Shown here: piece after piece, positions 1-64,000 of the stretch | Position numbering within the stretch: position 1 is the first letter of the stretch | Layout of the letters: every line of letters starts with the position of its first letter | Source: a virus | IMG/VR virus record: IMGVR_UViG_3300020442_000015 | Coordinates: 1-64,000 of that record | DNA: 64,000 nt | Direction: 5' to 3' (one strand) | The notes under the pieces: generated by a model | Databases searched by the model: none | Told to the model about the DNA's origin: nothing | Seen by the model: the letters and a program-made list of their open reading frames with translations, nothing else | Program-made: the position numbers and the translations under genes

Positions 1-177
1 GCCTATGATTTTGTAAGTCAGGAGATTAGGGCAGCAGAAGATCCTGAGTTCGAGACTTTCTATACTAAGAACATTCTTTTGAACGAAGGTCTTCGTGCCT
101 GGTTGGCACCCATTGATCAACCACACGAATCGTTTGTGTTCCCTGAAGAAGTATTGCCACGAGGCAACGCTCTTTGA
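1..177 (+). CDS. psbD: Photosystem II D2 protein, 3' end (partial)
   Basis: Frame 1 reads [34 protein letters not shown]...[10 protein letters not shown], the canonical D2 C-terminus. Confidence 0.97.
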
Positions 178-185
178 TATACTAC

Positions 186-209
186 GAGCACCCCACGGGG
201 TGCTTTTTT
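186..209 (+). terminator. Intrinsic terminator after psbD
   Basis: AGCACCCC-AC-GGGGTGCT inverted repeat followed by a T-tract. Confidence 0.8.
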
Positions 210-238
210 AATACATAAGATACAACCGTTTTATCGCA

Positions 239-529
239 ATGACCTACTCTGTTACTATCAAGAATTCTGATGGTGAGACCACTATCCAATGTGCATCGGA
301 TGAGTACATCCTAGATGCTGCTGAAGAGGCAGGTATCGATCTTCCGTACTCCTGTCGTGCTGGTGCTTGCTCTACTTGTGCTGGTAAGATTCTTTCAGGA
401 ACTGTTGATCAGTCAGACCAGTCTTTCCTCGACGATGATCAACTTGAAGCAGGTTTTGCACTGCTCTGTGTCTCTTATCCCACGTCCGATTGTGTTGTTC
501 AAGGTGAAGCGGAGGAACAATTATATTGA
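239..529 (+). CDS. petF: Plant-type [2Fe-2S] ferredoxin
   Basis: [13 protein letters not shown]...LLC cluster motif. Confidence 0.97.
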
Positions 530-759
530 TAAAACTTCTACGCATCTGGAAATATTCTCTTGGAAGTTTCAGTGATGACAAGACAGAACCATACGATAAT
601 TACATCGCTGCTGTACGCACAATCTTGTTCGTCTCCTATCTTGTCACCAACTGCTTCATCATTTCTGGTGTCATCAGGCACTGGGATGATGGCATAAATA
701 AAAAGAAACAGAATTCCATTAGTTATGTCCACTGTGCCAGGGAACAATCATTGGTTTGA
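526..759 (+). CDS. Small hypothetical membrane protein
   Basis: [10 protein letters not shown] motif plus one hydrophobic segment; TTG start overlaps the petF stop. Confidence 0.6.
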
Positions 760-3700
760 TCGTAATTGCGATCCCACAGATGCTCCCCAACAGCAGGAGC
801 AGGTCGCCTCGGGCGGTGGTAACGTTGGTTCCCCCCAAGGCGGTCCTGCTGACTCAACTGTAAACCAAGTAATTGAAGATCTAATTGGGCAGTGCTACCC
901 ATCGCAAGCACCTACGTCCATCAGGAATTTTATTGGAGATGATGCTCCAAAGATTCCTAATGAGATGAACCTGGACTGGAGTGGTATATTTCAAATCATT
1001 GACGGGTACGGAATCCCAAGACCTGATACCACAAAGATCAGGGTGAACTTTCCAGACGTGGGAGAACCTGGATCTGGTAGCATCTGTTATGACAGAGGTG
1101 ATGGTGTTCTTGACTGCTCTGTTCCAAAGAACCCAGACTTCGATGCCTGCATCAAGGATCACCTTGATTGTATGTTCAAACCTTATGTGGGTGGTGCTTG
1201 GAAACCACCTTCTACAGACTGTGATGCATTCATTCCTAAGCAAACATTTGGTACCTCAAATAAGATCTGTATTGCCAACTGTGTTCCCGAAAGGGTACCG
1301 ATCTATGAGCACGTGTTAGGTGGTCCTGAGGTTGGTGAAGACAATGCCACATTCAGTAGTAACTCTACTCTCAGTATCAGTGCTCCCTCTATCGTAACGA
1401 TTGAATTCTGGTGGGATGATAATCCTGGCACTGCTGGAGTTGCAGTTAATACCGTCACCATTGATGGAACTACATTTACACGTAATGGAACCAAAGGTAA
1501 GTCTACCGAAACATTCAATCTTGATGCAGGTAACTACACCATTTCCTACACAGGTCTGAACTCTGTTGGTAATCATTACGTCACCAACAGTTACGGAAAC
1601 AATAAGAACATTAAGTTTGAGGATGCAGATGGTAGTGACCAGAACGCACGTCTGACTATCGTGGATAGCGGTGTTGCAACCAACCACCTGTACAGTCTGG
1701 ATGAGACCCCTCCTTCGGGTTACAACGCCACTGGCAAGGTTTTCTATGGACACCCCGCCACTGCCGTTCAGGACGCCACCAGATCGATTCCAGTGTATGT
1801 GTCGTACTCCTCCGCGAAGGTGGACACAATGCTCACTACAAGACCTGAAGCCGAAAAGTCTACGATGGACTCGTATGGTATGGGTGCACGTGATGAAACG
1901 CTGTTCTGGGCTTACGATGATACCGATGATATGATCTCCTCACTGATGGATGGTGAAGAAGCACACGCTCTGCACAGATACTTCAGTCCTGATAAAAGAG
2001 ATCACCTCTATACATTACAACCTCTTGGTGGTGCAACTCTAGAACCTAATCTGAAGAAGGGTAGGTACAGGTTGGTTGATAAAGCACAAACTTATTTGAA
2101 CATTGCTTTTGAGGCACGTAAGGGTAATGCTGGTCGCGAGAATACATTCTTCTGGTATGTGACTGACGGACTGGGTGGTGATCCTGTCTATGGTGAAGTT
2201 ATTATGCCTAACATCACTGATGCATCGGGTAAGTTCATCCACAAGATCAACAAGAAACTTCTCAATCAATACATTCCTTGTGACTTTGGTTTTGGTATCG
2301 TCCCTGATGGTAATGATGAGAACGGTGGTGTTGAACAAGGTGATGTTCTGTCGTTCTCTGACACTGGTGATGGGTGGAAATGTAACTTGGACAGTGTGGA
2401 ACCAGATAACATTTCATTCTTCTCAGAGAGGAGATTGAATAGAGATGAGAAAGAGTGTACTCTGTGGCCAAATAGAAGGTGGCAGTATTGGGAGGATATG
2501 TTCTCAGGTAGTGATGAGGATTATGATGATGTGAAGATCTCATACAACCTCACGTATGGAAACTCGGCATATTATTATGAGGGTATCCAGTGCTATGTGT
2601 TTGACCAACCTGCAACGCCTGTGTATCAGGATCTGAAAACGTCTGACTGTGCACAAGCAGTCTTCGATGGTGCGTTCGGTGATGTTGAACTCATCCGTAC
2701 AGGTTGTGGAAATATGTCTGAGAATGAGACCGAAGGTGATGGTGCTGGTTGTGGTAAGTGTACGGGTGAGTATGGATATACTTTGAACAAAGTACAATCT
2801 ATTACTGCAACACGTGACGCCACTCTGACTCTAAGAACTCACGGTGGTATGACTGGTGGTAGAAATGATTGCTGTGTCTTTACCTACGGGATTGAGATCA
2901 ACGGCAACGAAACTATGAGTGAGAGGGTACACGTCAAAGACTGGGGAATTATTGGTAGAGTTCTTCAAACTTTCAATGTATCAAAGGGTGATCAGGTCAC
3001 ATTCAAAATTAAGAATGTCAATCGTGGTCACTACAATAGTAGAACTGCACCAGCAGTGTCTCTAAGAGATGAAACTCAGGAAGAGATTCTGAATACGTGG
3101 ACCATTAACATCACTACGACTTCTCAGGGATACAATGATCAGAACCCTGGTCAGGTTGATGGAAGAGCTACTGAGGCAACCGAACCTTGTGGACTCCCCG
3201 TTAGCGGTAAACTATTTGCAACTTGTAATGACACTCAAGAAGATCTGACGACGGTGCTAACCAATAAGGCGGTTCAGAATAACTTCCTGGAGACACGTGG
3301 AGATCTGAACTGTGACATTGAGGTCATCGGTGGTAAGTTAGTCAAAGATATGTCTACTAACCAAACAGGTTTCCTTAATACCAAAGGTGATGGTGGTGTA
3401 ACCCTGAAACTTACATACCAGATTCTTAATCCTGCTACCTATCACATCCGTTGGTCACTCAATGAGGTGCTTGATTATGGTCGCGGTGGTTGGGAAACAG
3501 GTGATACATTCAGATTGTTTATTGGTTCTTGGACCAAGATCAAGAAGAGTGCTGCCAAGACATACAAAGACGATCCAACTATCAGGAACAGGAAAGAGAA
3601 ATACTATCTTGGATTCAAGGTGACTGGTATCAATGGTCTACAGTGTCCAGATACCAATAGTGATCAGGGCAAGATTCAAGATGTCAAGTTCTTTGCTACA

Positions 3701-13400: not shown

Positions 13401-14396
13401 TTAGTATCCGCCGCCGTAGTATCCACCACCAGACGATCCACTGCTTCCGCTAGATCCACTTGATCCAGAGGAACTACTGCTTGATCCACTGCTGCTACTG
13501 CTGCTACTGGAACTGCTGCTGGAGGAAGAGGAACTACTGCTTGAAGAGGTTGTGCTACTGGTATTACTGTAGGTGGTTGAGGTTGAGGGTGTTGTGCTAA
13601 CCGTTGTTGTAGTATCTTCGACGATTGTTGCACCTGTGCTCGTACCGCTACCAGAACCTCCAGAGGAGATAAGTGCAGTAGAAGAACCACTGCCAGATGC
13701 AGACCCAGTTGAAGCAGTGCTTTGACTGGGTTTTCTATAGTTTGTGATCCCGATGAACTCTTCAGCAAGAGTTGTTGGGGTCTTTTTGTTTCCGTCAACA
13801 TCGATCTCACCGTGTGGTAGATATGCTGCGAGTTTCTTGAACTCTTTTACGAAGTCATTAACATAACCTTCACGAAGCAAGAAGATGTTTCTCTTCTTTT
13901 CATTCTCCGCTGCTTCCATCTCATAATACGTGACTGGTTTCCTAGAATCTGCCTTAGGAACTATAGTTCCATCAGGTCTGATGAATTGGAACGACTCATT
14001 CACAATAAGTCCTTCATCCAGAACCTTGATACCGTCTGTTGTTTTTATTTCATACGTTTCATAGTGACTGACCTTATCAACTGAACCATACTTGTTCAAC
14101 ACGTGAGCATATAATTGCTCTCTTGTCATTGGCCAATCATCATATACATTGATGATGTTATTGCAGAGAAGAACAACCCAGTCTAAACCAGGGTCACCAT
14201 ACAACACGTTAGCAATCTGATCAGGACGCTCACCTTCACCGATTTCATACTGTACAAATCCAAGCAGTGCACCTTGAAGATCATCTCTGATCTTGATGCG
14301 ACGGAAGATGTTCTTAGTCAGTTGGAAAGGATGATTACCATTGACCTGAGAACGATCTCTGATGTATACGTTGGGAAGATACTTAAAATAACTCAT
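13401..14396 (-). CDS. gp53: Baseplate wedge subunit gp53 with Ser/Gly-rich tail
   Basis: MSYF, NIFRR, ERPDQIA..LYG...DWVVL..NNI, HYET. Confidence 0.9.
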   Translation of the reverse strand: MSYFKYLPNVYIRDRSQVNGNHPFQLTKNIFRRIKIRDDLQGALLGFVQYEIGEGERPDQIANVLYGDPGLDWVVLLCNNIINVYDDWPMTREQLYAHVLNKYGSVDKVSHYETYEIKTTDGIKVLDEGLIVNESFQFIRPDGTIVPKADSRKPVTYYEMEAAENEKKRNIFLLREGYVNDFVKEFKKLAAYLPHGEIDVDGNKKTPTTLAEEFIGITNYRKPSQSTASTGSASGSGSSTALISSGGSGSGTSTGATIVEDTTTTVSTTPSTSTTYSNTSSTTSSSSSSSSSSSSSSSSSSSSGSSSSSSGSSGSSGSSGSSGGGYYGGGY

Positions 14397-15445
14397 CTGA
14401 TCATATCTCGTGTGATGAAGGCAGTTTCCTTCAGTGTAAGTGCCATTTCCATAGCAGCAGGACCATAATCATCCAGTTCGCTTTGCAATCCTTTCAAAGT
14501 ATTCATCTGACCGTCAGGTGTGACGTTCATATTGAGTCCAGTGATCACCATCTTGGTTGGGAACTGCATAATCTCTCTGAGACGTGCACCTTTTCCACTG
14601 ATCTCTTCAACTCTAGTTTCTCCAGAACCATTTGACTCGACACGAACAATCGAGCATCTAACATAGTCAGGGATGTTCAGGTATCTAGCACCACCGTATG
14701 ACTCGGTGCCAGACTTCATAATTTTTTCCATAATGGAACCTTCTTCAACATTCCCCAACGGATCATAGTTACCAGCAGTACCACTGACTGATGGCAGCAT
14801 TGCTTTTCTGAGTGCGTTGAAGATGTTGTAGCATTCTCTCGCTTCTTCTGGATTGCGAGGTGCCATCTTAAAGTTAAAACTGTGCTCTCTATAGTTCACA
14901 CCACGGAAGGTGACTTCCTGGTACGGGTTGAACACTTTTTTATTGACAAGTGCGTTAATATCTTGTGCGCTGATGCTTCCTTCAAGACCAAGAGAACTGT
15001 TCACAGCACCAAGACCAGATGCAATAGCGTTCAAACCAAACTGAGGTTTGACACTCGCTGCAAACTGTTGGATGTTCGTGACTAGATCTCCACCCTGCCC
15101 TGCACCTTGTTCCGACAATGCTTTCAGAGCACCAACACCAGCGGGACCTAGAGTTGTCTCGTTATAGATGGTGTTATACGATTCTGAAAGATTATTGGGA
15201 AGATATAGATAAATAGTGAAACGAATCGGTTCACCTCTCGACCCTCCGTTGGGAGCATACATACCACCAGGATTCTTTCCCATATATGTGTATGGATTAC
15301 CAGCATTGCTAGAACTATCGTAGACCTGAATCTTCAGATAATCTACAACTCTAGTCTCTTCGGCATCCTGAACATCGATACCATCACGCGATGTGAATGG
15401 CATCTCAGGGAGAGCTCTTGGATATACAAGTGGGGCTATTGACAT
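14393..15445 (-). CDS. gp48: Baseplate tail-tube cap gp48 (start 15445, alternatively TTG 15487)
   Basis: IYLYLP, NPYQEVTFRGV..R.HSFNFKM.PRN..EA. Confidence 0.85.
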   Translation of the reverse strand: MSIAPLVYPRALPEMPFTSRDGIDVQDAEETRVVDYLKIQVYDSSSNAGNPYTYMGKNPGGMYAPNGGSRGEPIRFTIYLYLPNNLSESYNTIYNETTLGPAGVGALKALSEQGAGQGGDLVTNIQQFAASVKPQFGLNAIASGLGAVNSSLGLEGSISAQDINALVNKKVFNPYQEVTFRGVNYREHSFNFKMAPRNPEEARECYNIFNALRKAMLPSVSGTAGNYDPLGNVEEGSIMEKIMKSGTESYGGARYLNIPDYVRCSIVRVESNGSGETRVEEISGKGARLREIMQFPTKMVITGLNMNVTPDGQMNTLKGLQSELDDYGPAAMEMALTLKETAFITRDMIR

Positions 15446-15447
15446 TG

Positions 15448-15894
15448 ATGAAACAACAGAGATCTTATCAAGGTAGGTTTCAGCCAAGTTACCCTGGAAA
15501 GTATAAGGGGGATCCTACAAACATTATTTATAGATCTTTGTGGGAACGTAAACTGATGGTATGGTGTGATAGAAATGAATCAATTCTTGAGTGGGGTTCG
15601 GAAGAAATTGTCATTCCATACCGTAGTCCTGTTGACGGTAGGATTCACCGCTATTTTCCAGACTTTTATATACGAGCACGCACCAGGCAAGGAGGGATTG
15701 AGAAGTTCATTATCGAGGTTAAACCGAAAGCCCAGTGTGCGCCCCCCAAGAAACCTAAACGGCAAACCAAAAGATACATAAATGAAGTGAAGACATACGC
15801 TGTCAATGATGCCAAATGGAAGGCAGCGAAAGAATTTTGTGATGACAGGAGGATGAAGTTCCTTATTCTCACAGAGAAAGAGCTCAAAGTATGA
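15448..15894 (+). CDS. gp4: Head completion nuclease gp4
   Basis: KYKGDPTNIIYRSLWE, HRYFPDF, IEVKP, N.AKW.AA. Confidence 0.92.
   Translation: MKQQRSYQGRFQPSYPGKYKGDPTNIIYRSLWERKLMVWCDRNESILEWGSEEIVIPYRSPVDGRIHRYFPDFYIRARTRQGGIEKFIIEVKPKAQCAPPKKPKRQTKRYINEVKTYAVNDAKWKAAKEFCDDRRMKFLILTEKELKV
15525..15532 (-). promoter_or_regulatory. Late promoter for gp48-gp53, inside gp4
   Basis: Perfect TATAAATA on the minus strand. Confidence 0.7.
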
Positions 15895-16352
15895 GTGCTT
15901 ACACCGACATAAAATCATTAGCAAACAACAAGTCACAGAAATCATCGTGGTGGCGTAACCAGTTGTTCTTTTACCTGAGCTCCAACGTCAAGGGTGTTGA
16001 CAGCGTGATGCCTGGAACAGCAGTGACATTCGGGTATCGTGCAGAGTACGGTGAGAAGATGCAGTTCTGGGACAAGTTCCCAATGGTGTACATCTATGGT
16101 GAAGATGCAACGCACTTCTGGGGTGCCAATGTACACTACCTGCTACCTGAGTACAGGTTCACTGGGTTCAGCCCAGCAGCACCTGCTAAGACACTGCATA
16201 AATACTTGAGGAGCAATGTACTTACTCCGTTATATGGCATCGAAAACTCTGAGTGGCAAGATATTGGTTTAATTCCCTCGGAACAATTCGTAATGACATC
16301 TAACGGTAGAACGCTAGACATACCCCGCACGATAATTTACAAGCGACTCTAA
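15891..16352 (+). CDS. gp2: DNA end protector gp2
   Basis: FWDKFP, FWGANVHYL, LHKYL; follows gp4. Confidence 0.8.
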   Translation: MSAYTDIKSLANNKSQKSSWWRNQLFFYLSSNVKGVDSVMPGTAVTFGYRAEYGEKMQFWDKFPMVYIYGEDATHFWGANVHYLLPEYRFTGFSPAAPAKTLHKYLRSNVLTPLYGIENSEWQDIGLIPSEQFVMTSNGRTLDIPRTIIYKRL

Positions 16353-17080
16353 TGGGCGTCCCTAATTCATTCCTACAATTTCGTGATTTACTCTCGTCAG
16401 GTTCATTTGAACCATCGAAGGGTAATCTTTTTAGTGTGGAGATGGGTCTCCCTATAATGTTCCAATCCTCAGAGACAGTTCCAAACTTCAGAACTGACAC
16501 TAGAGAGATGTATGAAGCGGTCAATTACCTGGCAGACTCTGTTGTCATCCCCTCTCGTAACGTGACCACAGGTGAGGTCAAGCAGATTGGAATGACTAGA
16601 ACATATGGTACTGGTCAGACTGCAAATGAATTGTCTGTTTCATTCTTGCTGACTAAAAACAACTGGCATAGAAATTTCTTTGAGAAGTGGATGAATGCTA
16701 TTGCGCCTGACAATGAAAACCGTGTGGCATTCTACGATCACTACACCACAGACATTACAGTAAGGAAGTGGGAAAATGGATCTAACATTGTTGCTAAGAC
16801 CACAGTCGATGGAGAACCTCAATACTCCAGACTGAATAAAGCAACTGGTGTGTATTGTTTTGCGAGAGCATTTCCTTTTAATATTAGTAACATCACTTAC
16901 TCTAATGAAGCACAGTTGATGAAGATGGACGTGCAGTTTAAGTACGAACGTTATAGATTTACAACCAAGGTCAAGAGAAGGAACGAGTGGACATCTGACA
17001 TCATTCTTGATGACTTCAATGCATCAACACAGATACTCTCCACTGGTGCATTTGGAATCGACACCCGCTTTGGGGTCTAA
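16352..17080 (+). CDS. Tail tube / tube initiator protein (gp54/gp19-like)
   Basis: FFEKWMNAI, FYD.Y..DI, AFP.NI, VQFKY motifs; synteny. Confidence 0.75.
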   Translation: MGVPNSFLQFRDLLSSGSFEPSKGNLFSVEMGLPIMFQSSETVPNFRTDTREMYEAVNYLADSVVIPSRNVTTGEVKQIGMTRTYGTGQTANELSVSFLLTKNNWHRNFFEKWMNAIAPDNENRVAFYDHYTTDITVRKWENGSNIVAKTTVDGEPQYSRLNKATGVYCFARAFPFNISNITYSNEAQLMKMDVQFKYERYRFTTKVKRRNEWTSDIILDDFNASTQILSTGAFGIDTRFGV

Positions 17081-17108
17081 ATAGAATTACTGAATTGTTT
17101 TTTACACA

Positions 17109-17813
17109 ATGCCTTTACCAAAACTGAGCATTCCTGATTATGAATGTGTGCTCCCTCGTGGTCAAAAAGTCACCTACAGACCATTCCTAGTCCGTGAAGA
17201 GAAGTTGCTGTACCTGGCAATGGAAACTCAGGATCAAAAGGAAATGATGAAAGCGGTGAAAGAGATCATCAAGAATTGCACAAGTGTCAAGAAGGTCGAA
17301 GATCTTGCCACCTTTGAGATTGAATTCCTCTTCCTTAAGATTCGTGCCAAGTCTGTTGGTGAAATTAGTGAGTTCAAACTCACCTGCCCCGATGATGATG
17401 AGACTCAAGTTGATGTGGAAGTGAACCTTGATCAAATTGAGGTTACTGTCCCTGATGACCACACCAACGTTGTCAAACTGAATGATGAAGTGACATTGAC
17501 TATGAAGTATCCATCCCTGGATACATTTGTGAAGAATAACTTGTCTGACAATCCTGGTATTGATGACATCTTCAAACTGGCAGCAGATTGTACTGAATCT
17601 ATCGCTGAAGGAGACGAACTCCACGCAGCTAAGGACTACAAGAAGGCAGAACTTGTTGAATTCTATGAGTCTATGAACTCTAAGCAGTTCCAAGACGTTC
17701 AGAAATTCTTTGAGACTATGCCTAAGTTGAGTCACCAGATTGAACTATTCAATCCTAAGACTGAGGTTACCAGCACTATTACTCTTGAAGGTCTAGCGGC
17801 TTTTTTCGCGTAG
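17109..17813 (+). CDS. gp26: Baseplate hub assembly chaperone gp26
   Basis: MPLPK, YRPFLVREEK, FL.IRAKSVGE, FFETMPKL, LEGLAAFF; late promoter CTAAATA near 17077. Confidence 0.92.
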   Translation: MPLPKLSIPDYECVLPRGQKVTYRPFLVREEKLLYLAMETQDQKEMMKAVKEIIKNCTSVKKVEDLATFEIEFLFLKIRAKSVGEISEFKLTCPDDDETQVDVEVNLDQIEVTVPDDHTNVVKLNDEVTLTMKYPSLDTFVKNNLSDNPGIDDIFKLAADCTESIAEGDELHAAKDYKKAELVEFYESMNSKQFQDVQKFFETMPKLSHQIELFNPKTEVTSTITLEGLAAFFA

Positions 17814-18007
17814 CCCTAGCGCACGACTCTCTGTTGAACTTGTATGAGACGAATTTCGCTCTGATGCAACACCACAAGTACAGTCTGACTGAACTTGAAA
17901 ATATGATGCCCTGGGAGAGGGATGTGTATGTGAACCTTCTGCTTAGATACCTTCGAGAGGAGGAAGCTAGACAGAGGCAAGCAAACGGACAACATCAATC
18001 ACTTTAA
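17807..18007 (+). CDS. gp51: gp51-like baseplate hub assembly domain; -1 frame relative to gp26 (not in ORF track; first ATG at 17864)
   Basis: RVALAHDSLLNLYETNFALMQHHKYSLTELENMMPWERDVYV...; TAA 18005-18007 overlaps the next ATG. Confidence 0.85.
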   Translation, partial: RVALAHDSLLNLYETNFALMQHHKYSLTELENMMPWERDVYVNLLLRYLREEEARQRQANGQHQSL

Positions 18008-20385
18008 TGGCAGCACTAAAAGTAAGATCATTTTTACCAACTACGGTACAGGGTAGTCCACGTGTGGACCCTATATCAGGTCTTACTACGTCTGTTAATC
18101 GCCTGGGGACTGTTGTAGAAGATCTTGGAAAAATCCTGACTGGTATGCACCAGGACAAGATGGATCTTCTCAATCGACAGCAGAGAACTGCGAACTTTGG
18201 GCGAGATAGATCTAGAGAAACCGCACTTGAGAAGGATGTGGTAAAGGGCGTAAAAGAAGATAAGTCATTAAACAAGACACAGAAGAAGAGTAAGGGGTGG
18301 TTAGATTCTTTAATCGAACCATTCATTTGGATTGCGGAGAAGGCAATCACATTCTTTGTACTGGATTGGTTATCTAATCCAGAGAATGAGAAGTTTCTTA
18401 GAGTAACTGTACCTATTATTGGTGGGTGGTTGAAAACTGCCTGGAATATTGGCACAGCGTCAGTCAATATGATTCTGGAGGCATTCTCGGAAGATAGTCT
18501 TCTGATGGGTGCTTTGAAACTGGTCGGTGGTATCGGTGGACTTTGGTTGATGGGACGCATCTTGCGTCCGTGGAAGATTGCAAGTGATATTGGTAAGTTG
18601 ATGAGACTTATCAGTGGTAATAAGAAAGCACGGCAACCAAAACCACAGTCACCAGGACAGATAAGAGCACAATCAGCCCAAGCTCGTAATGCTAACGCTA
18701 GTATTGCTGCGAAGGAGAGATATAGAAAGAGGTTTGGTGAAAAGGCATACCAAAAGAGGTTTGGTCCCAGTAGACTAGCCCGAGTTAAACAAGGTTTAGG
18801 AAGTAATATTAGAAGGGGACTGACAAATTCTAAGGTGATGGGTGGCGCTGCTGGTCTCGTCTCCTTTGGAACTAGACTGGCACAGGGAGACAGCATTCAG
18901 AAGGCAGCAGGTGGTGGTATTGGTGCAACCATCGGTTCGATGGCACTTACAGCACTGATTACACCTATCCTGGGTCCATTTGCACCACTGGTTGGTAGTG
19001 TTCTTGGTGGATTCCTTGGTGATAAGGTTGGTGCATTCATTGGTGAAGCAATCACACCAATTCTCAAACCATTGAAGACGCTGTTTATGGAGGTTCTGCT
19101 TCCAATAATCACGTCATACTTTGAACCTCTTCTCCCGCCCGTTCAGGAGTTGTTCAACGAACTTGGTCCTATTCTGCAGATGATTGCAGACTTCTGTAAA
19201 CCTCTGATTGATGGTGCAGTTAAAGAGATTGCACAGTTCTTGAGTGGAAATATTGCTAAGGCAGTCAACGGATTGATGTGGTTGATCAAGTTTGGTGCCA
19301 ATGCTGTCTCTGGAATTGTTGAAGGTACTGGTGCCGTTCTGAGGAAGGTTGACTTCTTAGGTCTGTTCAAAGATGATGTATTAAAAGCGGAAGAGAGACT
19401 GCAAAGCGCAGTAAATGCTGTAGATAGAGCTGATAGAAAGGTTAAACTTTGGGAAGGTATTGTTGCAGAAAAGGGTTCTGGTCATAAAGATCATATATTT
19501 GATAAGACAACTGCTGCCCAAGATCTTCAAAACGCTAGAGATGAATATGAGGCTGCTGTAGTTCTTGTTGAGTCAAGAAAAAAAGAACTAGCGCAAGCAA
19601 AGTCTGAGCAAGAAGCGAAAGCCACTCAGGCAATGATGGAGGAGCAGGCAAGAAGAGATGCTTTGTCTACAGATGATTCTGGTGGCGGTGATGGTAGAAC
19701 GCCTATCAGTGCTTCTGGTGTCACTGCTGCTGCGAAGAAAGTTATTGGTAAGTACCAAGGCGTCAGCAATATGTGCGCGATGTCTGTTCGTGCATACTTG
19801 AAGGCAGTAGGTCATCCAAAGTGGGATACGATTGCTACCAAGACAGGTAACCTTGATCCTGACGGCACAGCATACATTGGACCAACATTTGCAGCATCAT
19901 TTGCTGGTACTGACCTCGGTCAGCATATTATGGATAAGTCTAAACTGAAACCTGGAGACATTCTTCTCTATAGAGACACCATATCTGGTTTCACTCCTGG
20001 TGCTGTCACACACGTCGGTGTGATGGGAGAGAATGGTATGCAGTATGACCACAACTCAAGAAAAGGTTTCCATCAAAGATCCCTTGCAAGTGTGTTGACC
20101 TGGGCTAAATGGGGTGGTGGTATCAGACTGAAGGGTATGCCATCACAGGATCCTCCTGCAGCACAGGAAGTTACTAAGGTAGATCCTAGTAGTGATCTAA
20201 ATAATAGGAAGACCGAATTGATTAGTAGATCCGAATCGGAATCCACTACACAACTACAAAATGAAAGTGGCGGAGATCCTAAAGTGATCTTGCAACCGAT
20301 AATCAAACCCGCAGTTGTCACCGCTTCTAGCGGAGGCGGAGGAACAACTCTTGTTCCTGGGTCAGTCTCTACCTCAGTTAGCTAA
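18007..20385 (+). CDS. Tape-measure-like protein with C-terminal CHAP/NlpC-type amidase domain
   Basis: Helical Ala/Gly-rich repeats; NMCAMSV...LKPGDILLY...HVGVM Cys/His dyad. Confidence 0.7.
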   Translation: MAALKVRSFLPTTVQGSPRVDPISGLTTSVNRLGTVVEDLGKILTGMHQDKMDLLNRQQRTANFGRDRSRETALEKDVVKGVKEDKSLNKTQKKSKGWLDSLIEPFIWIAEKAITFFVLDWLSNPENEKFLRVTVPIIGGWLKTAWNIGTASVNMILEAFSEDSLLMGALKLVGGIGGLWLMGRILRPWKIASDIGKLMRLISGNKKARQPKPQSPGQIRAQSAQARNANASIAAKERYRKRFGEKAYQKRFGPSRLARVKQGLGSNIRRGLTNSKVMGGAAGLVSFGTRLAQGDSIQKAAGGGIGATIGSMALTALITPILGPFAPLVGSVLGGFLGDKVGAFIGEAITPILKPLKTLFMEVLLPIITSYFEPLLPPVQELFNELGPILQMIADFCKPLIDGAVKEIAQFLSGNIAKAVNGLMWLIKFGANAVSGIVEGTGAVLRKVDFLGLFKDDVLKAEERLQSAVNAVDRADRKVKLWEGIVAEKGSGHKDHIFDKTTAAQDLQNARDEYEAAVVLVESRKKELAQAKSEQEAKATQAMMEEQARRDALSTDDSGGGDGRTPISASGVTAAAKKVIGKYQGVSNMCAMSVRAYLKAVGHPKWDTIATKTGNLDPDGTAYIGPTFAASFAGTDLGQHIMDKSKLKPGDILLYRDTISGFTPGAVTHVGVMGENGMQYDHNSRKGFHQRSLASVLTWAKWGGGIRLKGMPSQDPPAAQEVTKVDPSSDLNNRKTELISRSESESTTQLQNESGGDPKVILQPIIKPAVVTASSGGGGTTLVPGSVSTSVS

Positions 20386-22415
20386 TGGCAGAAGCGAAAT
20401 CAAAAATTAGATTTTACAAGTATGTAACCCCACCCAAGGATGGGGGTGCAACGATTAGCGTAGGAAATAAGACCATTGCTGGGTCAAATTTCACGGCAAC
20501 TATAAATGCAGTTAATTCCCTGGGTGCAACTGTAAACAGTATTGCTGTAGCATTGCAAGGTCAACGTTCAGCTCAGCAGATAGCTCAGGCACAAGCAGAC
20601 AGGAGAGCACAGTTACAAAGGGATAGAAATAGAGAGGGTAAATTAGAATCTACAGGCACAAAAGCAAAAGAAATTGTTGGTGGTGTTGTAAAGGGTGGTG
20701 CAAGTTTTCTAGAGAATCTACTTAAGTTCCTCAAAGATTTCTTGATCTTTACAGCACTGGATTGGTTAGCTGATCCTAAGAATCGAGAGAGGATAGAAAA
20801 AACACTTGATCGTATAGGTAAGTTCTTCAACTGGATGAGGGATACCTTCAACTGGGTATCGAACTGGATTAGTGAAAACTGGGAAAAAACATTTGGTGAG
20901 GACAAAACCTTCCAAGAACGATTAGAAGGTGCCAGCAGTCTATTACTTGGTGCTGGTGCAGCCTTATTAGGTCTTGCGTTCCTGAAGAATCCCATTGGGA
21001 CGATTGCCAACTTCACAAAGATCATTACCACAGTTGGTAAAGGTATTCTGAACATTGGTAAAGCACTTGGTGGGACTGCGTTAGGTCAAGTTGCTATGGG
21101 TGCTACCCAAGGATACTTTGCCTATCAGGACGTGATGGAGAACTACGATGGTCCTGAAGAGGATCGCGTAGCAGCGGCACGTGGGGCAGCGGGTGGTGCT
21201 ACTGTTGGTGCTGTTGGACTAGGAATGCTCGGCAACAAGATTGCTGGTCCTCTTGGTGGTATCATTGGTAATGCTCTGGGCGGTTTCCTAGGTAAGGAGG
21301 CAGGTAAGTTCCTGGGACCAATCGTTGGTGACTTCTTCAATACAATGCAGGAAGTCTTCGGGGGCATTATGAGCTTCCTGGAAGAGACGTTCAAACCAGT
21401 TGGTGAAGCACTGGAGCAACTGTTTGTTGAGATGGGTCCTGCTATTGATAAACTGACTCAGTTCATCAAACCACACTTACCGAAATTAAAAGAACTCGCA
21501 CAATTTATTGGTAAGATTGCATTTACACCACTCATCTTACTGATGAAGGGTATCACCAATCTCTTGAAGTTGGTGAATGGTGGTAAAGCAGAGGATCCAA
21601 CTAAGAGTGGAGAAGAAACAGAAGAAAAATCTGCTGGTGGACTGTTTAGAATGCCACCTCTGCTGTCTAAGGGTGGATGGATCACGGGACCACAATCTGG
21701 TTACCCAGTGTCTATGGATGGTGGTAAGTCCGTTTCCTTTATCGGTCACGGAACAGAATATGTTGCACAAAGATCCTCAGGCGGTTTCGTCATACCTTTT
21801 GATACCCCCCATACTAGAAGAGATCCTGGTCTGACGAGTCGTCGGATGACACAGGCAAGATCATATGGTTACAAAACACCAGAGTTTTCTATTGGTGGGC
21901 AGTTTAATTATGCAAACGCATTTGCACCGACATTCAACAAAACGGTCAATATGCCATCCCCTACATATAGCAAATTGCCCCAACGTAGTATTGGTGGTTT
22001 TGTGAAGGGTATTGCATCTGCCGCTGGATCTATGTTTGGTGGACCCGCAGTTGGTGCTGCAATGGGTATGCTCGGTAACGTTGCTGGAGCAGCACAGAAC
22101 ATCACCAAAGCAGCAATGCCTGTTATCAGTTCTGTCATCCCTGGTGGTAATATTACTGGTAAGTTCCTGTCAGATGCTTTGTCAAAGGTTAAAACTGCTG
22201 CTGCCGAAGTTAAAGCAGGAAATATGGAAGAAGCAGTCAAAACAATCGTTGCCGAAGCGATTGTGCTGCCAACTGCTACTTCACAGACTGGTTCAGCAGG
22301 TGGAGAAGGCACACCTGTTCCTATTCCCTCGGCAGAAAACCCTGCTACAGATTTCTTGAAGAGCAGATTTGGTTCATTTGCCGAACTTGCCAACCCATTG
22401 AGTAACTTCTTCTAA
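20385..22415 (+). CDS. Tape-measure-like protein, paralog 2
   Basis: Shares VN.LG.TV, LDWL..P.N and GP.G..G..LGGFLG motifs with the upstream gene; GG.ITGP.SGYPV...HGTE. Confidence 0.65.
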   Translation: MAEAKSKIRFYKYVTPPKDGGATISVGNKTIAGSNFTATINAVNSLGATVNSIAVALQGQRSAQQIAQAQADRRAQLQRDRNREGKLESTGTKAKEIVGGVVKGGASFLENLLKFLKDFLIFTALDWLADPKNRERIEKTLDRIGKFFNWMRDTFNWVSNWISENWEKTFGEDKTFQERLEGASSLLLGAGAALLGLAFLKNPIGTIANFTKIITTVGKGILNIGKALGGTALGQVAMGATQGYFAYQDVMENYDGPEEDRVAAARGAAGGATVGAVGLGMLGNKIAGPLGGIIGNALGGFLGKEAGKFLGPIVGDFFNTMQEVFGGIMSFLEETFKPVGEALEQLFVEMGPAIDKLTQFIKPHLPKLKELAQFIGKIAFTPLILLMKGITNLLKLVNGGKAEDPTKSGEETEEKSAGGLFRMPPLLSKGGWITGPQSGYPVSMDGGKSVSFIGHGTEYVAQRSSGGFVIPFDTPHTRRDPGLTSRRMTQARSYGYKTPEFSIGGQFNYANAFAPTFNKTVNMPSPTYSKLPQRSIGGFVKGIASAAGSMFGGPAVGAAMGMLGNVAGAAQNITKAAMPVISSVIPGGNITGKFLSDALSKVKTAAAEVKAGNMEEAVKTIVAEAIVLPTATSQTGSAGGEGTPVPIPSAENPATDFLKSRFGSFAELANPLSNFF

Positions 22416-29794: not shown

Positions 29795-30054
29795 CTTTCG
29801 ATTATCGTCTACTAATTCAGGACACCAAGTATGCACCTATCGTGTGCAAGTTCTGGTATATTAACGGTGTTCCATACACTTTTGATGAAATCGACTTTCC
29901 AGAAATCGAACTCCTTGAGAGTTGCGAAACAATAGATCCTTGGACTATCGATGATCTATATAAGTGGAGTAGTTACCTTGTTATGGAAGAGATTCACCCT
30001 CTCCTCTTTGAGTTGGAAGACCAGATAGAATGTGAATGTGAATTGCCAAATTAG
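29782..30054 (+). CDS. Conserved hypothetical protein
   Basis: INGVPYTFDE...SYLVMEE.HP; stop codon lies inside the tRNA. Confidence 0.65.
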   Translation: MYKVTFDYRLLIQDTKYAPIVCKFWYINGVPYTFDEIDFPEIELLESCETIDPWTIDDLYKWSSYLVMEEIHPLLFELEDQIECECELPN

Positions 30055-30118
30055 CTCAGCTGGATAGAGCAACGGTTTTGTAAACCGTAGGTCGTCGGTT
30101 CAAGTCCGACATTTGGCT
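30045..30118 (+). tRNA. trnT: tRNA-Thr (TGT), CCA not encoded
   Basis: Acceptor GCCAAAT/ATTTGGC; anticodon arm ACGGT-TTTGTAA-ACCGT; T-loop GGTTCAAGTCC. Confidence 0.95.
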
Positions 30119-46548: not shown

Positions 46549-47195
46549 ATAATTACGCTGAAGAGTTTGTTCCCACAACGGTGATCGATAATTTCTTTGA
46601 GACACCATCACTCGTGAGAGCATTTGCTCAACAACAAGAATACTTTCTCTGCACAGATCACCCTCGTGGTGGTAATTGGCCAGGGAAAAGATGTAACCTG
46701 TTAAATGAGATCGATCCAGTCTTTCACGAGATTGTGTGTAAGAAACTGGTAAGGTATCTTCCACATCATCAAGCATTTGACATCGCAGATATGACATTTC
46801 ATATGTGTGATGGAGCAAACTCTCCTGGGTGGATCCACACTGACCCACCACATTTGGGCATCGGTGCTGTTATCTATTTGAATCAAGGTATTAGACCAGG
46901 CACAGGAACTTGTCTGTATGATGTACCGCCTGGGTTTAATGGTCAGGGATATGAAGAAGAGTTCCAACAACAACTTGCTCTTCAGGGTACACCTGAGGCA
47001 GCAAAGTTCGAGAAGTATAAAGAAGATTGTAATGGTGTATTTCGACCGTCAGTGACTGTTGAAGCACGCTATAATCGATGTATACTATTTGATGGACGTA
47101 AATACCACGGAGGTATGAACTTCTTTGGTAATGACGTTACTGATGCTAGACTAACACTTGTATTCTTTGGGAGGGGTATTTTAATTGGACCTTGA
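46545..47195 (+). CDS. 2OG-Fe(II) oxygenase-like (DUF6445-like)
   Basis: VIDNFF..P..VR, WPGKR, WIHTD, YNR.ILFDG..YH, RLTLVFF. Confidence 0.82.
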   Translation: MNNYAEEFVPTTVIDNFFETPSLVRAFAQQQEYFLCTDHPRGGNWPGKRCNLLNEIDPVFHEIVCKKLVRYLPHHQAFDIADMTFHMCDGANSPGWIHTDPPHLGIGAVIYLNQGIRPGTGTCLYDVPPGFNGQGYEEEFQQQLALQGTPEAAKFEKYKEDCNGVFRPSVTVEARYNRCILFDGRKYHGGMNFFGNDVTDARLTLVFFGRGILIGP

Positions 47196-47820
47196 AACAC
47201 TTGCTGACAATAAACTGTACCTGATTAAAGGTGCACTCAGTACAGATCTCTGTGAGTATCTGAAGACTGAGTTTATGATGATTAAGGACATCATTGAGGC
47301 AAACCCGATGGGTCCAACCAGTGATCCTATTATGCCTGGGGCATTTGCAATGTATTCACCTATTTGTTTTGAAGCAATGGGTGATAAGATCAAACCACAG
47401 ATTGAGGAAGTGCTCGATGCAGAACTATGGCAAACCTTTTCCTACGCGAGGGTGTACGTTAAGGGTACCAATCTTGTACGACATCGTGATAGAACCTCAG
47501 GAGAATGGGTCGGTAATGTTTGCATCACTCGTGATGATACCGATTGGCCCTTCTATATTGAGATCGATGGAAAGTCGCATCAAATTGTCCTCAATCAAGG
47601 CGATTTATTGATATTCAGGGGACACAAAGATTTCCACTGGAGACCAAAATATCAGGGAGATCTTCAAATCCAAGCATTTGTCTCTTATGTTGACAAAAAT
47701 GGCAAATATAGTAAGAATAAGTGGGATGGTCGCCCTGGTCTTGCTTATCCTTGGGAAACTGCATCCGAAGAGATACAGTATGAACAGTCGATGATTAACT
47801 CTTCACCTTATTACACCTGA
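47185..47820 (+). CDS. 2OG-Fe(II) oxygenase
   Basis: SYARVY..G..L.RHRDR, GD.L.F.G...HWR. Confidence 0.85.
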   Translation: MDLETLADNKLYLIKGALSTDLCEYLKTEFMMIKDIIEANPMGPTSDPIMPGAFAMYSPICFEAMGDKIKPQIEEVLDAELWQTFSYARVYVKGTNLVRHRDRTSGEWVGNVCITRDDTDWPFYIEIDGKSHQIVLNQGDLLIFRGHKDFHWRPKYQGDLQIQAFVSYVDKNGKYSKNKWDGRPGLAYPWETASEEIQYEQSMINSSPYYT

Positions 47821-55231: not shown

Positions 55232-55735
55232 ATGACTGTGACTCTCACTCCCGAACAACGTTATCAACAACTGTTTGAGCAGATGTATGAACTCTGCGAC
55301 CAACAGTCTTGGGGAGATCCTTTCTCTTACGCTCGTTCTCGTGAGATTCACTTAGCAGGCGTCTTGGGTCACACTATTGCTGACGATTATAGTGGTGCTG
55401 ATGCATACGATGAGGATGGTCCTTGTGAGTATAAATCAACAATCGGTAAAAATCTCACCGCTACATATAACGGTATCTCCGTTCAACCAACTTGGAAAGA
55501 TCAAGTCAATTATCTTATCAATGACAAGATCGGTAAGTATAAGAACCACTATTTCGCACGTTATCACCTTGGCAAGATCGTTGAGGTTTACAAACTTTCT
55601 GCCGATGATGTGCTTGCTATTCTTATACCTAACCTCAAGCGTCAGTACGAGAATCCCAGCAACCGCAAAGATCCTCGTCTCGGATATACTATCTCCAACA
55701 GGTATATCAAAGCAAATGGAACACGAATCGTCTGA
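55232..55735 (+). CDS. PvuII-like type II restriction endonuclease (PD-(D/E)XK)
   Basis: GADAYD..G..EYKS core; KIGKY...FARY..G.I.EVY.L and YI...GTRI segments align by eye with R.PvuII over the full length. Confidence 0.65.
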   Translation: MTVTLTPEQRYQQLFEQMYELCDQQSWGDPFSYARSREIHLAGVLGHTIADDYSGADAYDEDGPCEYKSTIGKNLTATYNGISVQPTWKDQVNYLINDKIGKYKNHYFARYHLGKIVEVYKLSADDVLAILIPNLKRQYENPSNRKDPRLGYTISNRYIKANGTRIV

Positions 55736-60447: not shown

Positions 60448-60759
60448 ACTGACATTAGACCAGAAGAAACTGATCTTTGATGCTGTTCGTTACTATCAGA
60501 TGAATGCGATTGGACCTTTTAAGGAAAGACGCTATAATGAATGCGACAAGATTCTACAGCAACTTGAATCCTCCAGGAAGTTTTATGAAAAAGGCGAGTG
60601 CGACATCTAAGTGGGAGATCTCTCTCACTGATGAAGAGCGTAAACTTATCTGCAACTCAGGTAAGTGGGCTCTTATTTACAAGGCAGATGTTTGTGGTGG
60701 CAAGGAACTGGAGAAGGTACAAGCATTATGGCGTTCTATTCGTGAAAAACTAGGAGAGT

Positions 60760-61311
60760 ATGATGACAGTCCCTTCGTTGGAGGTAATTGACAATTTCTT
60801 GCCTGAAGATTTGTTCTACAAGATGCAAGAACAGATTTGTGGAGATCAATGTTTTCCTTGGTATCTGAATCACGCGAAGGTGATGCACGTTGCTCGTGCA
60901 TTTGATCCAGAACTACAAGCGAAGGAATTATACAACTGGCAAATGGTGCACAAGTTCTATGAGTTAGGTAGACCACAATCCCAGGAGTGGGAATACATCT
61001 TACCTCTCATTAACTACTTGCGACCTCGTGCCTTAATACGGATCAAAGGAAATTTGAACCATCACACGGATAGTATGATAGAGTATGACTATCACACAGA
61101 CTGTGGAGAGTATGGTATGAACGACTTTGAGGGGGCAACCACTGCGGTGTTCTATCTGAATACCTGCGATGGTTATACCTTCTTCAAGGACGGTACGAAG
61201 GTGAACTCGGTAGAGAACCGACTTGTTCGTTTCCCTGTTGATACACCACACGCTGGCACATCTACAACTGACCAGAAGTTTCGTTTTGTCCTAAATTTGA
61301 ATTATTTCTGA
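60760..61311 (+). CDS. 2OG-Fe(II) oxygenase
   Basis: YHTD, FYLNTCDGYT, NRLV.F....H, RFVLNLNYF. Confidence 0.88.
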   Translation: MMTVPSLEVIDNFLPEDLFYKMQEQICGDQCFPWYLNHAKVMHVARAFDPELQAKELYNWQMVHKFYELGRPQSQEWEYILPLINYLRPRALIRIKGNLNHHTDSMIEYDYHTDCGEYGMNDFEGATTAVFYLNTCDGYTFFKDGTKVNSVENRLVRFPVDTPHAGTSTTDQKFRFVLNLNYF

Positions 61312-61387
61312 TATATAAGGGGAAGTAAAACGGTTCTAGGGGCACCCCCCGCGAGCGTTTTCCCTATACTAATACATTAAACATACT

Positions 61388-62200
61388 ATGACATTTGGCA
61401 CAAACTTCGATCCAGACTACGATTACAATCCAAACTTCATACAACCAAAAGGCACCAGACAAAACACTGAACTAAAAGATATACTCGATATACCCTATAC
61501 AGTACCAGGAGAGCTAGTTACATCCCTACCTGGGGAGAAGTGGAAACTAGCGCGTGTAGTAGAATACGGTAAGGAGATTATCCTACCGTGGTATCACGTC
61601 AGTAACTTAGGGCGTGTGATTAGTCATATCCGCCATAACCGTACGCCATTGTATCGTTCGGGTAATCGGTGGGGTTATGACGAGAACCGTATCTGCAACG
61701 GTAAGATGAAGAAGTTCGGTTCACCTAATAAAGGGAGGAACGCAGCAGTTGAAGACTATCACTGGAAACTCTTCCTGAAGGTAGTGCACTGGGGTTTACT
61801 GGAACCAATCTGGTTGGATGAGGCAAAGACTAAACAGTCTGCTTCATCTGAAAGACAAGAGAAGGATCTACCTATCCATAGACTTGTCATTGACACCTGG
61901 GCACCTATCTACGAGGTGGATCCCGACATTCCTGCAGAGATGCTAGAAGCAATGAGATGGCACTCTATGCCTAAGGAAGGCAAACTGTGGATGAACCCTA
62001 TGTTTGAAGTTGATCATAGTGGTGAAGAACAGAACTCACTTGACAACAGAGTGCACAAACTTCGTCGTACTACTGGGGGCGACAACAACCGTGCGGCATT
62101 GATTGCACGTGGAGGTAGTCACGCTAATCCTATTCAGGCACGTGTCACGACTTCAAAACCCAAAGAAACCCCAACCCTCGAAACCTTTTTTGTAAAATGA
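61388..62200 (+). CDS. NUMOD4/HNH homing endonuclease-like protein
   Basis: EKWK, YHVSNLGRVIS, IHRLV, EVDH...N..DN. Confidence 0.7.
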   Translation: MTFGTNFDPDYDYNPNFIQPKGTRQNTELKDILDIPYTVPGELVTSLPGEKWKLARVVEYGKEIILPWYHVSNLGRVISHIRHNRTPLYRSGNRWGYDENRICNGKMKKFGSPNKGRNAAVEDYHWKLFLKVVHWGLLEPIWLDEAKTKQSASSERQEKDLPIHRLVIDTWAPIYEVDPDIPAEMLEAMRWHSMPKEGKLWMNPMFEVDHSGEEQNSLDNRVHKLRRTTGGDNNRAALIARGGSHANPIQARVTTSKPKETPTLETFFVK

Positions 62201-62451
62201 CCCAAACACCACCTGCTATTCCAGAATTTGAAACCTATGAGGAGGAGATTGAATGGAGATTCGGCAAGATCGCTGAGAGCATCAAGACTCTTGCGGAACG
62301 TAGTCAATCAACAGAAGCGTTCCTACAGAGGGGTGCTGATATGATTCAGTACAAGATCCCAGGTCACACTGAGTATTCAAACTTACGTCAGATCTTTGAC
62401 GATCTCTATTCCAGAATAAATACACTGGAAGAGAAACTTAACAGTGACTAA
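62197..62451 (+). CDS. Hypothetical coiled-coil protein
   Basis: YKIPG...FDDLYSRIN.LE. Confidence 0.65.
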   Translation: MTQTPPAIPEFETYEEEIEWRFGKIAESIKTLAERSQSTEAFLQRGADMIQYKIPGHTEYSNLRQIFDDLYSRINTLEEKLNSD

Positions 62452-64000
62452 TGCCAGCCTACATTATTGAAACTGGTCGTAGTTATCCGAATCCTGTAGA
62501 TTCTGAAGACTATGATAGAACCTATACATCTGATGAACATCCCTCCTTTGGAAGTGGTTATCAGATTGAGATTGAGGGCTCTGGACCAGGTTCATATGCA
62601 TTTGGCAGGGATGAAGTCTTCTATATTGGTGATCCTACCGAGACTTGTGTAGAGTTTTGCGATGCAGACCGTAGAGCGGTCTATCGTTTCTACAGTGGTC
62701 GTTGGGAGGATCATTTTTATTATCATAAGGAAAAGATTCCTAAGGACATTCCTCAAGAAAGAAAGAGATATAATATTGAACCTCGTAATGGACAAGACTA
62801 TTTTCAACTCAACAAGAGCAACGTATCTGGTTCTATTCCTGTGTATGTTGCTTGGAATGGGGGCGACAAAAATAGTTACCTTTCTACTTCTGGTGGACAG
62901 AAGTTGCTTGGATACGGGTTCCCAAGTGTATCTGCAGCAACCAGTGCGGGGGTAAGTTTCGTTAATGAGATGCCAACGGCACTCTATCACTATAGAAAGA
63001 ATGCAGATGGTGATGTTGATGACTTTTACACCATCAATCCTGCCAATGAAGTCAATTTATCTGGTGGACCTATCCCTCCAAGGGAAGCAAGGCAGGGTGA
63101 GTACGTCTACCAAGGCATTTTCTGCTATGTTTGGACTGGTGGAGCGCCTAGAAACCGTAAAAGAGTCGAAACATCGGGTAAAGCGTACAATACTGGCGAA
63201 GTTGACCGCAATGGGTGGTATCAATACAACCAAACTTGGTCAAAAGCACGTTATCACGACGAACCAGAGGCAACTCCTGCTCAAGAAGGGTGGGGTGACC
63301 CAAATAATGCGGAACTAATCAGTACAAATGCCAACTTTGAGTGGTTTTACGGCAAAAATGGTGCTGTCAAAGCGGCAATGCCAAGATTCCTTGGTTTTCA
63401 CGACTGTTTTGAGGGTCAATTTGTCTATTATCTGTATGATACGTCATTTCCCTTCAATGGTCCCATCTATGGTATCAACTTTACTACCACAGATGCTCCG
63501 TGTTGCCCTCAAAGAAGTCAAACACCGTGTGAACCCAATGTTAGGTACCACTCATTGTACTATGAGATGCGTCAAGACGCTTGGGTAACCAAGAGAACCT
63601 CAATGACAGTGGATAGCACTGAACACGGTAGTCAAGGAGACTCATTCTGGACTGTTGGTACAGATGAAGAGATGATCTTCTTCCGTTATACGTCTGCTAC
63701 TGGTGCTTTCCGTGTTGGGGAGACTCTCAACAACTGGACAATTATGAAAGTACGATACTTCGGTGATGAATTGAAGTGTGGTTATATGAAATTGTTCAAA
63801 GAGGGTAAAGCAAGGGGCAATGAATTCACCTATCTGCAGAATATCACATCAGATGATGGTGCAACTGCTTCAGTTTTGGCAGGATATGGTATCAAAGACA
63901 AGGTTGCGTTCTTTGGTGTGTATGAATTTCCCAAAAAACTGTCATATTACCGTGTAGAGATCGATAATAAGGCACTGATTCCAAAAAGAACGCTGGATGT
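62451..64000 (+). CDS. Large virion structural protein, 5' part (runs off the window; not in track)
   Basis: ATG 62451 in TAATG overlap; MPAYIIETGRSY...; ATAAATA near 62416; shares motifs with 725-4327. Confidence 0.75.
   Translation, partial: MPAYIIETGRSYPNPVDSEDYDRTYTSDEHPSFGSGYQIEIEGSGPGSYAFGRDEVFYIGDPTETCVEFCDADRRAVYRFYSGRWEDHFYYHKEKIPKDIPQERKRYNIEPRNGQDYFQLNKSNVSGSIPVYVAWNGGDKNSYLSTSGGQKLLGYGFPSVSAATSAGVSFVNEMPTALYHYRKNADGDVDDFYTINPANEVNLSGGPIPPREARQGEYVYQGIFCYVWTGGAPRNRKRVETSGKAYNTGEVDRNGWYQYNQTWSKARYHDEPEATPAQEGWGDPNNAELISTNANFEWFYGKNGAVKAAMPRFLGFHDCFEGQFVYYLYDTSFPFNGPIYGINFTTTDAPCCPQRSQTPCEPNVRYHSLYYEMRQDAWVTKRTSMTVDSTEHGSQGDSFWTVGTDEEMIFFRYTSATGAFRVGETLNNWTIMKVRYFGDELKCGYMKLFKEGKARGNEFTYLQNITSDDGATASVLAGYGIKDKVAFFGVYEFPKKLSYYRVEIDNKALIPKRTLD

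Follow-up and report, generated by a model that had tools for sequence, protein, structure and literature searches.

The window analysed here, a stretch of 64,000 nucleotides, is the start of the 99,495-bp IMG/VR record IMGVR_UViG_3300020442_000015 (positions 1-64000 of that record, hereafter the contig), from an uncultured T4-like marine cyanophage of the family Kyanoviridae. It lacks CATG and CCGG completely and has lost most copies of GGCC, of the other words of the form RGCY (R, purine; Y, pyrimidine), and a large set of palindromic hexamers. These losses reflect a site-by-site purge of the targets of type II nucleases, in which the agent for CATG is probably a nuclease with the fold of PvuII encoded by the phage itself at 55232-55735, and the nucleases acting on the other words may also be carried by cyanophages. 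The two features concerned are the following.

1..64000, no strand: window-wide purge of CATG, CCGG, GGCC, RGCY and at least 14 hexamers (k-mer counts)
55232..55735, plus strand: PvuII-fold (type IIP restriction-like) nuclease of 167 amino acids, candidate CATG cutter (AlphaFold2 and Foldseek)

Palindromic words missing from the contig

Nucleotide matches of the contig, which CheckV estimates to be about 54% complete, are exclusively to T4-like cyanophages of Synechococcus and Prochlorococcus in the Kyanoviridae. The gene content is consistent with this family (gp32, gp53, gp48, gp5, RNase H, PhoH, ThyX, CpeT, CP12, and many 2OG-Fe(II) oxygenases). There is no near cultured relative (the best gp5 identity to any cultured phage is 40%), and marine metagenomes contain many contigs that are related or nearly identical. 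The main comparison sets are 74 IMG/VR loci around gp5 homologues, 12 cultured Kyanoviridae from nine named genera (one phage is unassigned) whose hosts include low-GC Prochlorococcus and marine Synechococcus, and complete relatives, including those labelled G001 and G014.

Under a second-order Markov model, the window should contain 237 CATG, 58 CCGG, 48 GGCC, and 131 AGCT, and it contains 0, 0, 6, and 25, respectively. Other palindromes are near expectation (GATC, 397; TCGA, 188; GTAC, 213; TGCA, 352; ACGT, 221). The same picture emerges from 200 synonymous codon shuffles inside the genes of the whole contig, where CATG and CCGG are again absent (174 ± 11 and 144 ± 10 expected) and the four RGCY words are all 6-9 times depleted (GGCC, 9 versus 78; AGCT, 47 versus 287; GGCT, 21 versus 185; AGCC, 19 versus 126; observed/expected 0.11-0.16). 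Hence, the original prediction, made from the letters of the window, that CATG and CCGG are almost absolutely avoided and AGCT is reduced while the five other palindromes are plentiful, stands when counts are compared with Markov and codon-shuffled expectations in the window and in the whole contig. The crude gene caller accepted one probable mirror open reading frame (ORF), which has a slight effect on the shuffle set. This ATG-started ORF of 434 codons (52243-53547, minus strand) is antisense to a helicase gene (ResIII/DEAD; 52267-53508, plus strand) and is almost certainly no gene.

The depleted set given by the original prediction was right for GGCC and AGCT and too narrow overall, as it missed the whole of RGCY, at least 14 palindromic hexamers, and an effect on the Trp-Pro dipeptide. 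AGCT, AGCC, GGCT, and GGCC all rank in the bottom six 4-mers of the contig, and GGCG, AGCA, TGCT, and CGCT are among the highest. The four RGCY words are thus depleted and the RGCR and YGCY words enriched, which is the pattern of a CviJI-like specificity. Among palindromic hexamers that contain none of the depleted 4-mers and have a Markov expectation of at least 5, 14 out of 42 are absent from the contig (including ATTAAT, TTATAA, TTTAAA, AGTACT, CAATTG, GATATC, TTCGAA, and GACGTC); none of the 1836 non-palindromic pairs passing the same expectation threshold is.

The traces of this process are visible in codon choice. Histidine is encoded 140 times by CAC and never by CAT when the next codon starts with G, and CAT makes up about half of the histidine codons before other bases. 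No C stands before any of the 108 called ATG starts, and none of the 503 codons preceding an internal methionine ends in C; the first of these observations and the histidine bias had been anticipated. The losses extend to the 8.3 kb of intergenic DNA, where CATG and CCGG are both at zero (31 and 15 expected).

Sites that remain are found where function imposes them. Trp-Pro is the only codon context in which a synonymous change cannot remove GGCC, and 9 of the 10 GGCC sites of the contig lie in TGG-CCN Trp-Pro codon pairs, the other being intergenic. The six positions predicted in the window are exact and all correspond to such pairs, of which one belongs to a gene on the minus strand.

2466..2469, plus strand: retained GGCC, TGG-CCA Trp-Pro
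14131..14134, minus strand: retained GGCC, TGG-CCA Trp-Pro, in a gp53-like baseplate wedge gene (Pfam for the gene)
24506..24509, plus strand: retained GGCC, TGG-CCA Trp-Pro
41272..41275, plus strand: retained GGCC, TGG-CCC Trp-Pro
46678..46681, plus strand: retained GGCC, TGG-CCA Trp-Pro
47546..47549, plus strand: retained GGCC, TGG-CCC Trp-Pro

Two further Trp-Pro GGCC sites lie beyond the window, in a single ORF of 6380 codons (69404-88546), by far the largest of the contig, presumably coding for a structural or fibre protein of giant size. The Trp-Pro dipeptide is itself at about half of its expected frequency in the contig (9 versus 18.3, P = 0.01), and this is repeated in two complete relatives (15 versus 29.3 and 16 versus 28.3). 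Since the Pro-Trp dipeptide shows no such depletion, selection against GGCC reaches the protein sequence.

Some residual sites of the RGCY words lie in a tRNA gene, and others are clustered in one region of the window.

30045..30119, plus strand: tRNA-Thr(TGT) (ARAGORN)
15001..22500, no strand: cluster of residual RGCY sites, 24 of the 109 in the contig (counts per 2.5-kb bin, dispersion index 2.3)

The conserved D-arm of the tRNA (TAGCTCAGCTGG) holds two of the residual AGCT sites of the window and one CAGCTG, and its T-arm (GGTTCAAGTCC) is free of the purged word TTCGAA. Within the cluster, the highest density of residual RGCY sites is in a gene for a gp4-like head-completion nuclease (15397-15894, five sites). 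In conclusion, because only palindromes are affected, removal is synonymous, and residual sites lie where function forces them, the losses result from strong purifying selection against specific sequences, of the kind known as restriction avoidance and acting via synonymous codons, and not from chance, biased mutation, or an artefact.

The PvuII-fold nuclease and the loss of CATG

The words are not lost in the same way among relatives. Neither the 74 gp5-centred loci nor the 12 cultured kyanoviruses contain any CCGG; GGCC is strongly reduced in the former, to 0-8 copies per locus (12-54 expected), and GGCC and RGCY are both depleted in all of the latter. CATG is missing from the lineages nearest to the window, but more distant ones and 10 cultured phages have it at normal levels. 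Hence, the loss of CCGG and of GGCC/RGCY is common to all T4-like cyanophages examined, whereas that of CATG is lineage specific. Other words are purged more sporadically. The set of missing hexamers differs from genome to genome, GCGC and GTAC are purged in some metagenomic clades only, and individual cultured phages have losses of their own: GATC in S-RIM8 (3 versus 50 expected), TCGA and ACGT in P-TIM68 (1 and 5 versus 70 each), and GCGC and CGCG in P-SSM2 (0 versus 24 each).

The candidate for CATG was reached through a weak Pfam match in a complete relative, followed by tblastn to 55232-55735 of the window. The AlphaFold2 model of the 167-residue protein has a mean pLDDT of 92.7, and the best 11 matches listed by Foldseek against the PDB are all PvuII, over the full length, with probability 1.00 and TM scores of 0.59-0.73. 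Residues D57, E66, and K68 are invariant across 27 homologues, and we take them to be the equivalents of D58, E68, and K70 of PvuII. Ten of the 27 homologues match PF09225 weakly (best E = 1.2e-4). The protein of the window has no Pfam match at E ≤ 1, the PF09225 and PF05315 models do not detect it in the contig, and phmmer and profile searches against PDB sequences found nothing; the PvuII fold is visible solely from the predicted structure. Homologues are very numerous in marine metagenomes (1350 clusters), and none was found in the 251 host-family genomes. The target of PvuII itself, CAGCTG, is present five times in the contig, so it is evidently not the target of this nuclease.

In P-TIM68 and at 68 of 84 nuclease loci, the nuclease gene lies directly upstream of a gene for a 176-residue protein weakly similar to adenine methylases, an arrangement like that of a restriction-modification cassette. 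The contig matches none of the PF00145, PF01555, and PF02086 methylase models, nor the methylases of P-TIM68 and P-SSM2 in tblastn, and neither the small methylase nor a PF01555 methylase occurs anywhere in the complete genomes G001 and G014, where the nuclease is an orphan. At loci that lack the PvuII-like gene, the genes upstream of the small methylase show no Pfam match of the NlaIII/IceA type.

The CATG content tracks both the presence of the nuclease and the methylase status. Genomes lacking the nuclease have CATG near expectation (10 cultured phages and five large contigs), and the 66 loci with nuclease and methylase have a median observed/expected ratio of 0.2. Of 14 nuclease loci without an adjacent methylase gene, 12 are from kyanoviruses, and all 12 are at zero. 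The other two are P-SSM2, which has a methylase copy about 7 kb from the nuclease and keeps CATG, and a different virus (IMGVR_UViG_3300037780_000034; 317,722 bp, 32% GC), which has a PvuII-like nuclease with no adjacent small methylase and also keeps CATG, in 12 copies (58 expected), with GTAC at 2 versus 58, TCGA at 4 versus 58, and CCGG normal. The complete orphan-nuclease genomes are also CATG-free, save for the last 2.4 kb of the 187-kb G001, which holds its only 12 CATG (G001:C1:185063-187347) and represents either a recent acquisition or a chimeric end of the assembly. The nuclease tree places one methylase-bearing clade, in which CATG is tolerated, inside the CATG-free orphans. CATG is the sole palindrome of four or six letters that is missing from every orphan genome and frequent in those with the methylase. 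Because of this association across relatives, the loss of CATG is most likely due to the phage's own methylase-less nuclease, which is predicted to cut CATG.

In related phages, nuclease and small adenine methylase form a cassette. In the lineage of the window, which has no methylase, any CATG in its own DNA would be cut, and selection would remove every copy that a synonymous codon can replace. A target-free genome would thereby take the place of the methylase as self-protection. The nuclease could still attack the DNA of rival phages and that of the host, which has 2-4 CATG per kb. For the other words, selection leaves the copies that are forced, such as Trp-Pro for GGCC and the tRNA D-arm for AGCT.

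Phage or host as the source of selection

Enzymes of the HpaII, HaeIII, MspI, and IceA/NlaIII types were found in none of the 251 host-family genomes, in searches of which only that for HpaII had a positive control, and a C5 methylase is present in 28 of these genomes (11%). In host DNA all purged words are at Markov expectation, with 10-43 such sites per kb (2.3-3.6 per kb for CATG). In two T7-like cyanophages with hosts from the same genera, P-SSP7 and Syn5, CATG, CCGG, and AGCT are at expectation. Prochlorococcus and marine Synechococcus are at the bottom of the distribution of restriction-modification systems, Prochlorococcus genomes typically having none or one and many strains having none (PMC8262939), and host DNA is degraded early in infection by cyanomyoviruses (PMC7852597). 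Because the hosts are restriction-poor, their DNA has normal word frequencies, podoviruses keep the words, and host DNA is degraded early, we infer, more weakly than for CATG, that the losses of CCGG, GGCC, RGCY, and the hexamers are caused by nucleases carried by cyanophages, either the phage itself or co-infecting rivals. The original prediction had proposed sequence-specific selection from one of three sources. The selection is confirmed, and of the sources a phage-encoded nuclease is the best supported, for CATG; host restriction is supported neither by the searches nor by the host-DNA counts, and methyl-directed defence has no positive evidence.

Several points weigh against phage nucleases as the agents. 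HpaII and HaeIII types are found in none of the 14 complete kyanovirus genomes, and no phage candidate was found for CCGG, GGCC, or RGCY. Novel or strain-variable host enzymes would be missed by searches based on families, three of which were made without a positive control, and cyanopodoviruses may escape host restriction by other means. The assignment of CATG is correlative and, because the orphan nucleases form one clade, rests on about two to four independent losses of the methylase. Sixteen of the 66 methylase-bearing loci are also CATG-free, so that loss of CATG does not need loss of the methylase, and the order could even be reversed, with CATG purged first and the methylase lost later. 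The methylase could also lie in the missing half of a genome that is 54% complete, although the two complete relatives argue otherwise.

If hosts were the driver, the purged words, CATG included, would be the targets of restriction-modification systems spread across diverse hosts; the phage nuclease would be incidental, and a prior purge of CATG would be what allowed the loss of its methylase. We regard this as unlikely. Avoidance of palindromes is classically ascribed to host restriction (Rusinov et al. 2018, PMC6286503; Gelfand and Koonin 1997, as cited in PMC8262939), but marine picocyanobacteria are the poorest in such systems and many Prochlorococcus have none (PMC8262939). A hexamer mosaic that varies between lineages fits variable host repertoires, yet the loss of CCGG is uniform over phages whose hosts span 31% to 61% GC. 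The C5 methylases of 11% of host-family genomes have to be set against the absence of the HpaII, HaeIII, MspI, and IceA types from all 251, and against the observations that host DNA avoids none of the words and that the words persist in cyanopodoviruses infecting the same hosts. Many methylase-bearing phages already have little CATG, as this scenario would have it; still, all 10 nuclease-free cultured kyanoviruses keep CATG while sharing hosts with nuclease-bearing ones such as P-SSM2.

Methyl-directed (type IV) defence would act differently: orphan host methylases would mark the words on progeny DNA, the next host would cut it, and the phage would shed the words. Orphan methylases of GGCC (m4C) and of other words are indeed common in cyanobacteria generally (bioRxiv 10.64898/2026.10.20.760421). 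But the contig is rich in GATC, which the widespread cyanobacterial Dam methylates (601 copies, observed/expected 0.89), few host-family genomes have a C5 methylase, and the tracking of CATG with the phage's own nuclease is left unexplained, all of which makes this scenario very improbable. Mutational decay, for example by deamination of 5-methylcytosine at methylated sites, draws on the hypermutability of methylated cytosines and on the fact that every fully purged 4-mer contains C. It is rejected as next to impossible, together with an assembly or sequencing artefact. No mutational equilibrium comes near zero out of 174 and zero out of 144 expected sites, searches of the contig gave no cytosine methylase, the residual GGCC are almost only in one non-synonymous context with Trp-Pro itself depleted, and the AT-only hexamers ATTAAT, TTATAA, and TTTAAA are purged as well. 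That the pattern recurs in finished genomes of cultured phages, as well as in dozens of metagenomes assembled independently, further contradicts an artefact. Selection by restriction-type nucleases, with the phage's own enzyme probably acting on CATG, is the reading that we retain.

Other genes of the window and known systems

Other nuclease-like genes of the window were considered as cutters and set aside. Two proteins belong to a family annotated as "DNA endonuclease V" (phrog_274). The one at 60760-61311 has no Pfam match to T4 endonuclease V and groups with relatives of 2OG-Fe(II) oxygenases, and the one at 47975-48598 was set aside via the shared phrog_274 family alone. The window has at least eight 2OG-Fe(II) oxygenase-like paralogues, including 8705-9915, 24031-24594, 44756-45869, 47975-48598, 58004-58648, and 60760-61311. 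The gene at 58636-58980 codes for an HNH protein of 114 residues with a NUMOD4 motif, of the homing type, and that at 61388-62200 for a protein of 270 residues with a weak NUMOD4 match; both are probably homing-endonuclease genes or remnants of them. The product of 15397-15894 is a TnsA-like nuclease at a position annotated as "head closure" in relatives, which we take to correspond to gp4 of T4, and that of 10879-11547 is a Cas4/RecB-like PD-(D/E)XK exonuclease. Together with RNase H, the HNH protein at 58636-58980 and the products of 15397-15894 and 10879-11547 make up the other nuclease-like genes of the window. The window also codes for a homologue of tryptophan halogenases of 563 residues (41992-43683; PF04820, E = 3e-81), which is annotated in S-WAM1 and S-SZBM1 as well.

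Palindrome avoidance is a known signal in virulent double-stranded DNA phages (Rusinov et al. 2018, PMC6286503). As in the known cases, avoidance here concerns palindromes only, proceeds through synonymous codon choice, and is lineage specific. It differs from them by its breadth and completeness (three 4-mers, RGCY, and at least 14 hexamers, many at exactly zero), by reaching the amino-acid level, and by affecting phages of hosts that rank with the poorest in restriction-modification systems and yielded no matching enzymes. The classic cases reportedly include a GATC-free Staphylococcus phage, K, and GGCC-poor Bacillus phages (Sharp 1986; Kruger and Bickle 1983). Also unusual are the uniform family-wide loss of CCGG and the coexistence in one genome of total CATG loss and a methylase-less restriction-type nuclease. 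No mention of cyanophages was found in Rusinov et al. (PMC6286503), and no description of the pattern in cyanophages in the literature searched, which is no proof that it is unpublished.

The Kyanoviridae are among the most abundant viruses of the ocean and recycle host DNA into their own. The papers found give no explanation of how they spare their own unmodified DNA, and a methylase-less restriction enzyme combined with a target-free genome would be a simple answer. If so, extreme palindrome avoidance can report the weapons of a virus or of its rivals instead of the defences of its hosts, which would change the reading of avoidance signatures in metagenomes. That CCGG is kept out of all sampled T4-like cyanophages, across nine named genera and many uncultured lineages, is a concrete puzzle in this respect.

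R.PvuII (CAG^CTG; PF09225; PDB 1pvi, 1f0o, 2pvi) is the closest known enzyme to the nuclease of the window. The two share the full-length fold, according to the predicted structure, a similar size (167 versus about 157 residues), and the PD...(D/E)XK motif (D57, E66, and K68). They differ in that identity is only about 19-22%, with the protein of the window under the Pfam threshold, in that the window lineage has no partner methylase, and in the target, which would be CATG rather than CAGCTG. For biological role, there is a parallel in the chlorella viruses, where R.CviAII (CATG) and R.CviJI (RGCY) degrade host DNA while the viruses' own sites are methylated. Common to both is a nuclease of restriction type, encoded by the virus, whose 4-bp target would let it shred the DNA of the host, and CATG and RGCY are both words purged here. 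This likeness is drawn from specificities, not from sequence, and the phage studied here has neither sites nor methylase.

One may tentatively go further and suppose, although we consider it doubtful, that T4-like cyanophages in general tell self from non-self by the absence of words, using methylase-less restriction-type nucleases that would shred the DNA of hosts and rivals but find no target in the phage genome. The PvuII-fold enzyme would serve for CATG in the lineage of the window, and family-wide enzymes would serve for CCGG and GGCC/RGCY. If this is true, word absence replaces the modified-base strategy of T4, and phage nucleases, not host defence, are the main force shaping these genomes. 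T4 marks its own DNA with hydroxymethylcytosine, and its EndoII and EndoIV degrade the cytosine-containing DNA of the host. Both systems are T4-like, degrade host DNA, and need to spare their own, but here discrimination would rest on an absent target word and not on a modified base.

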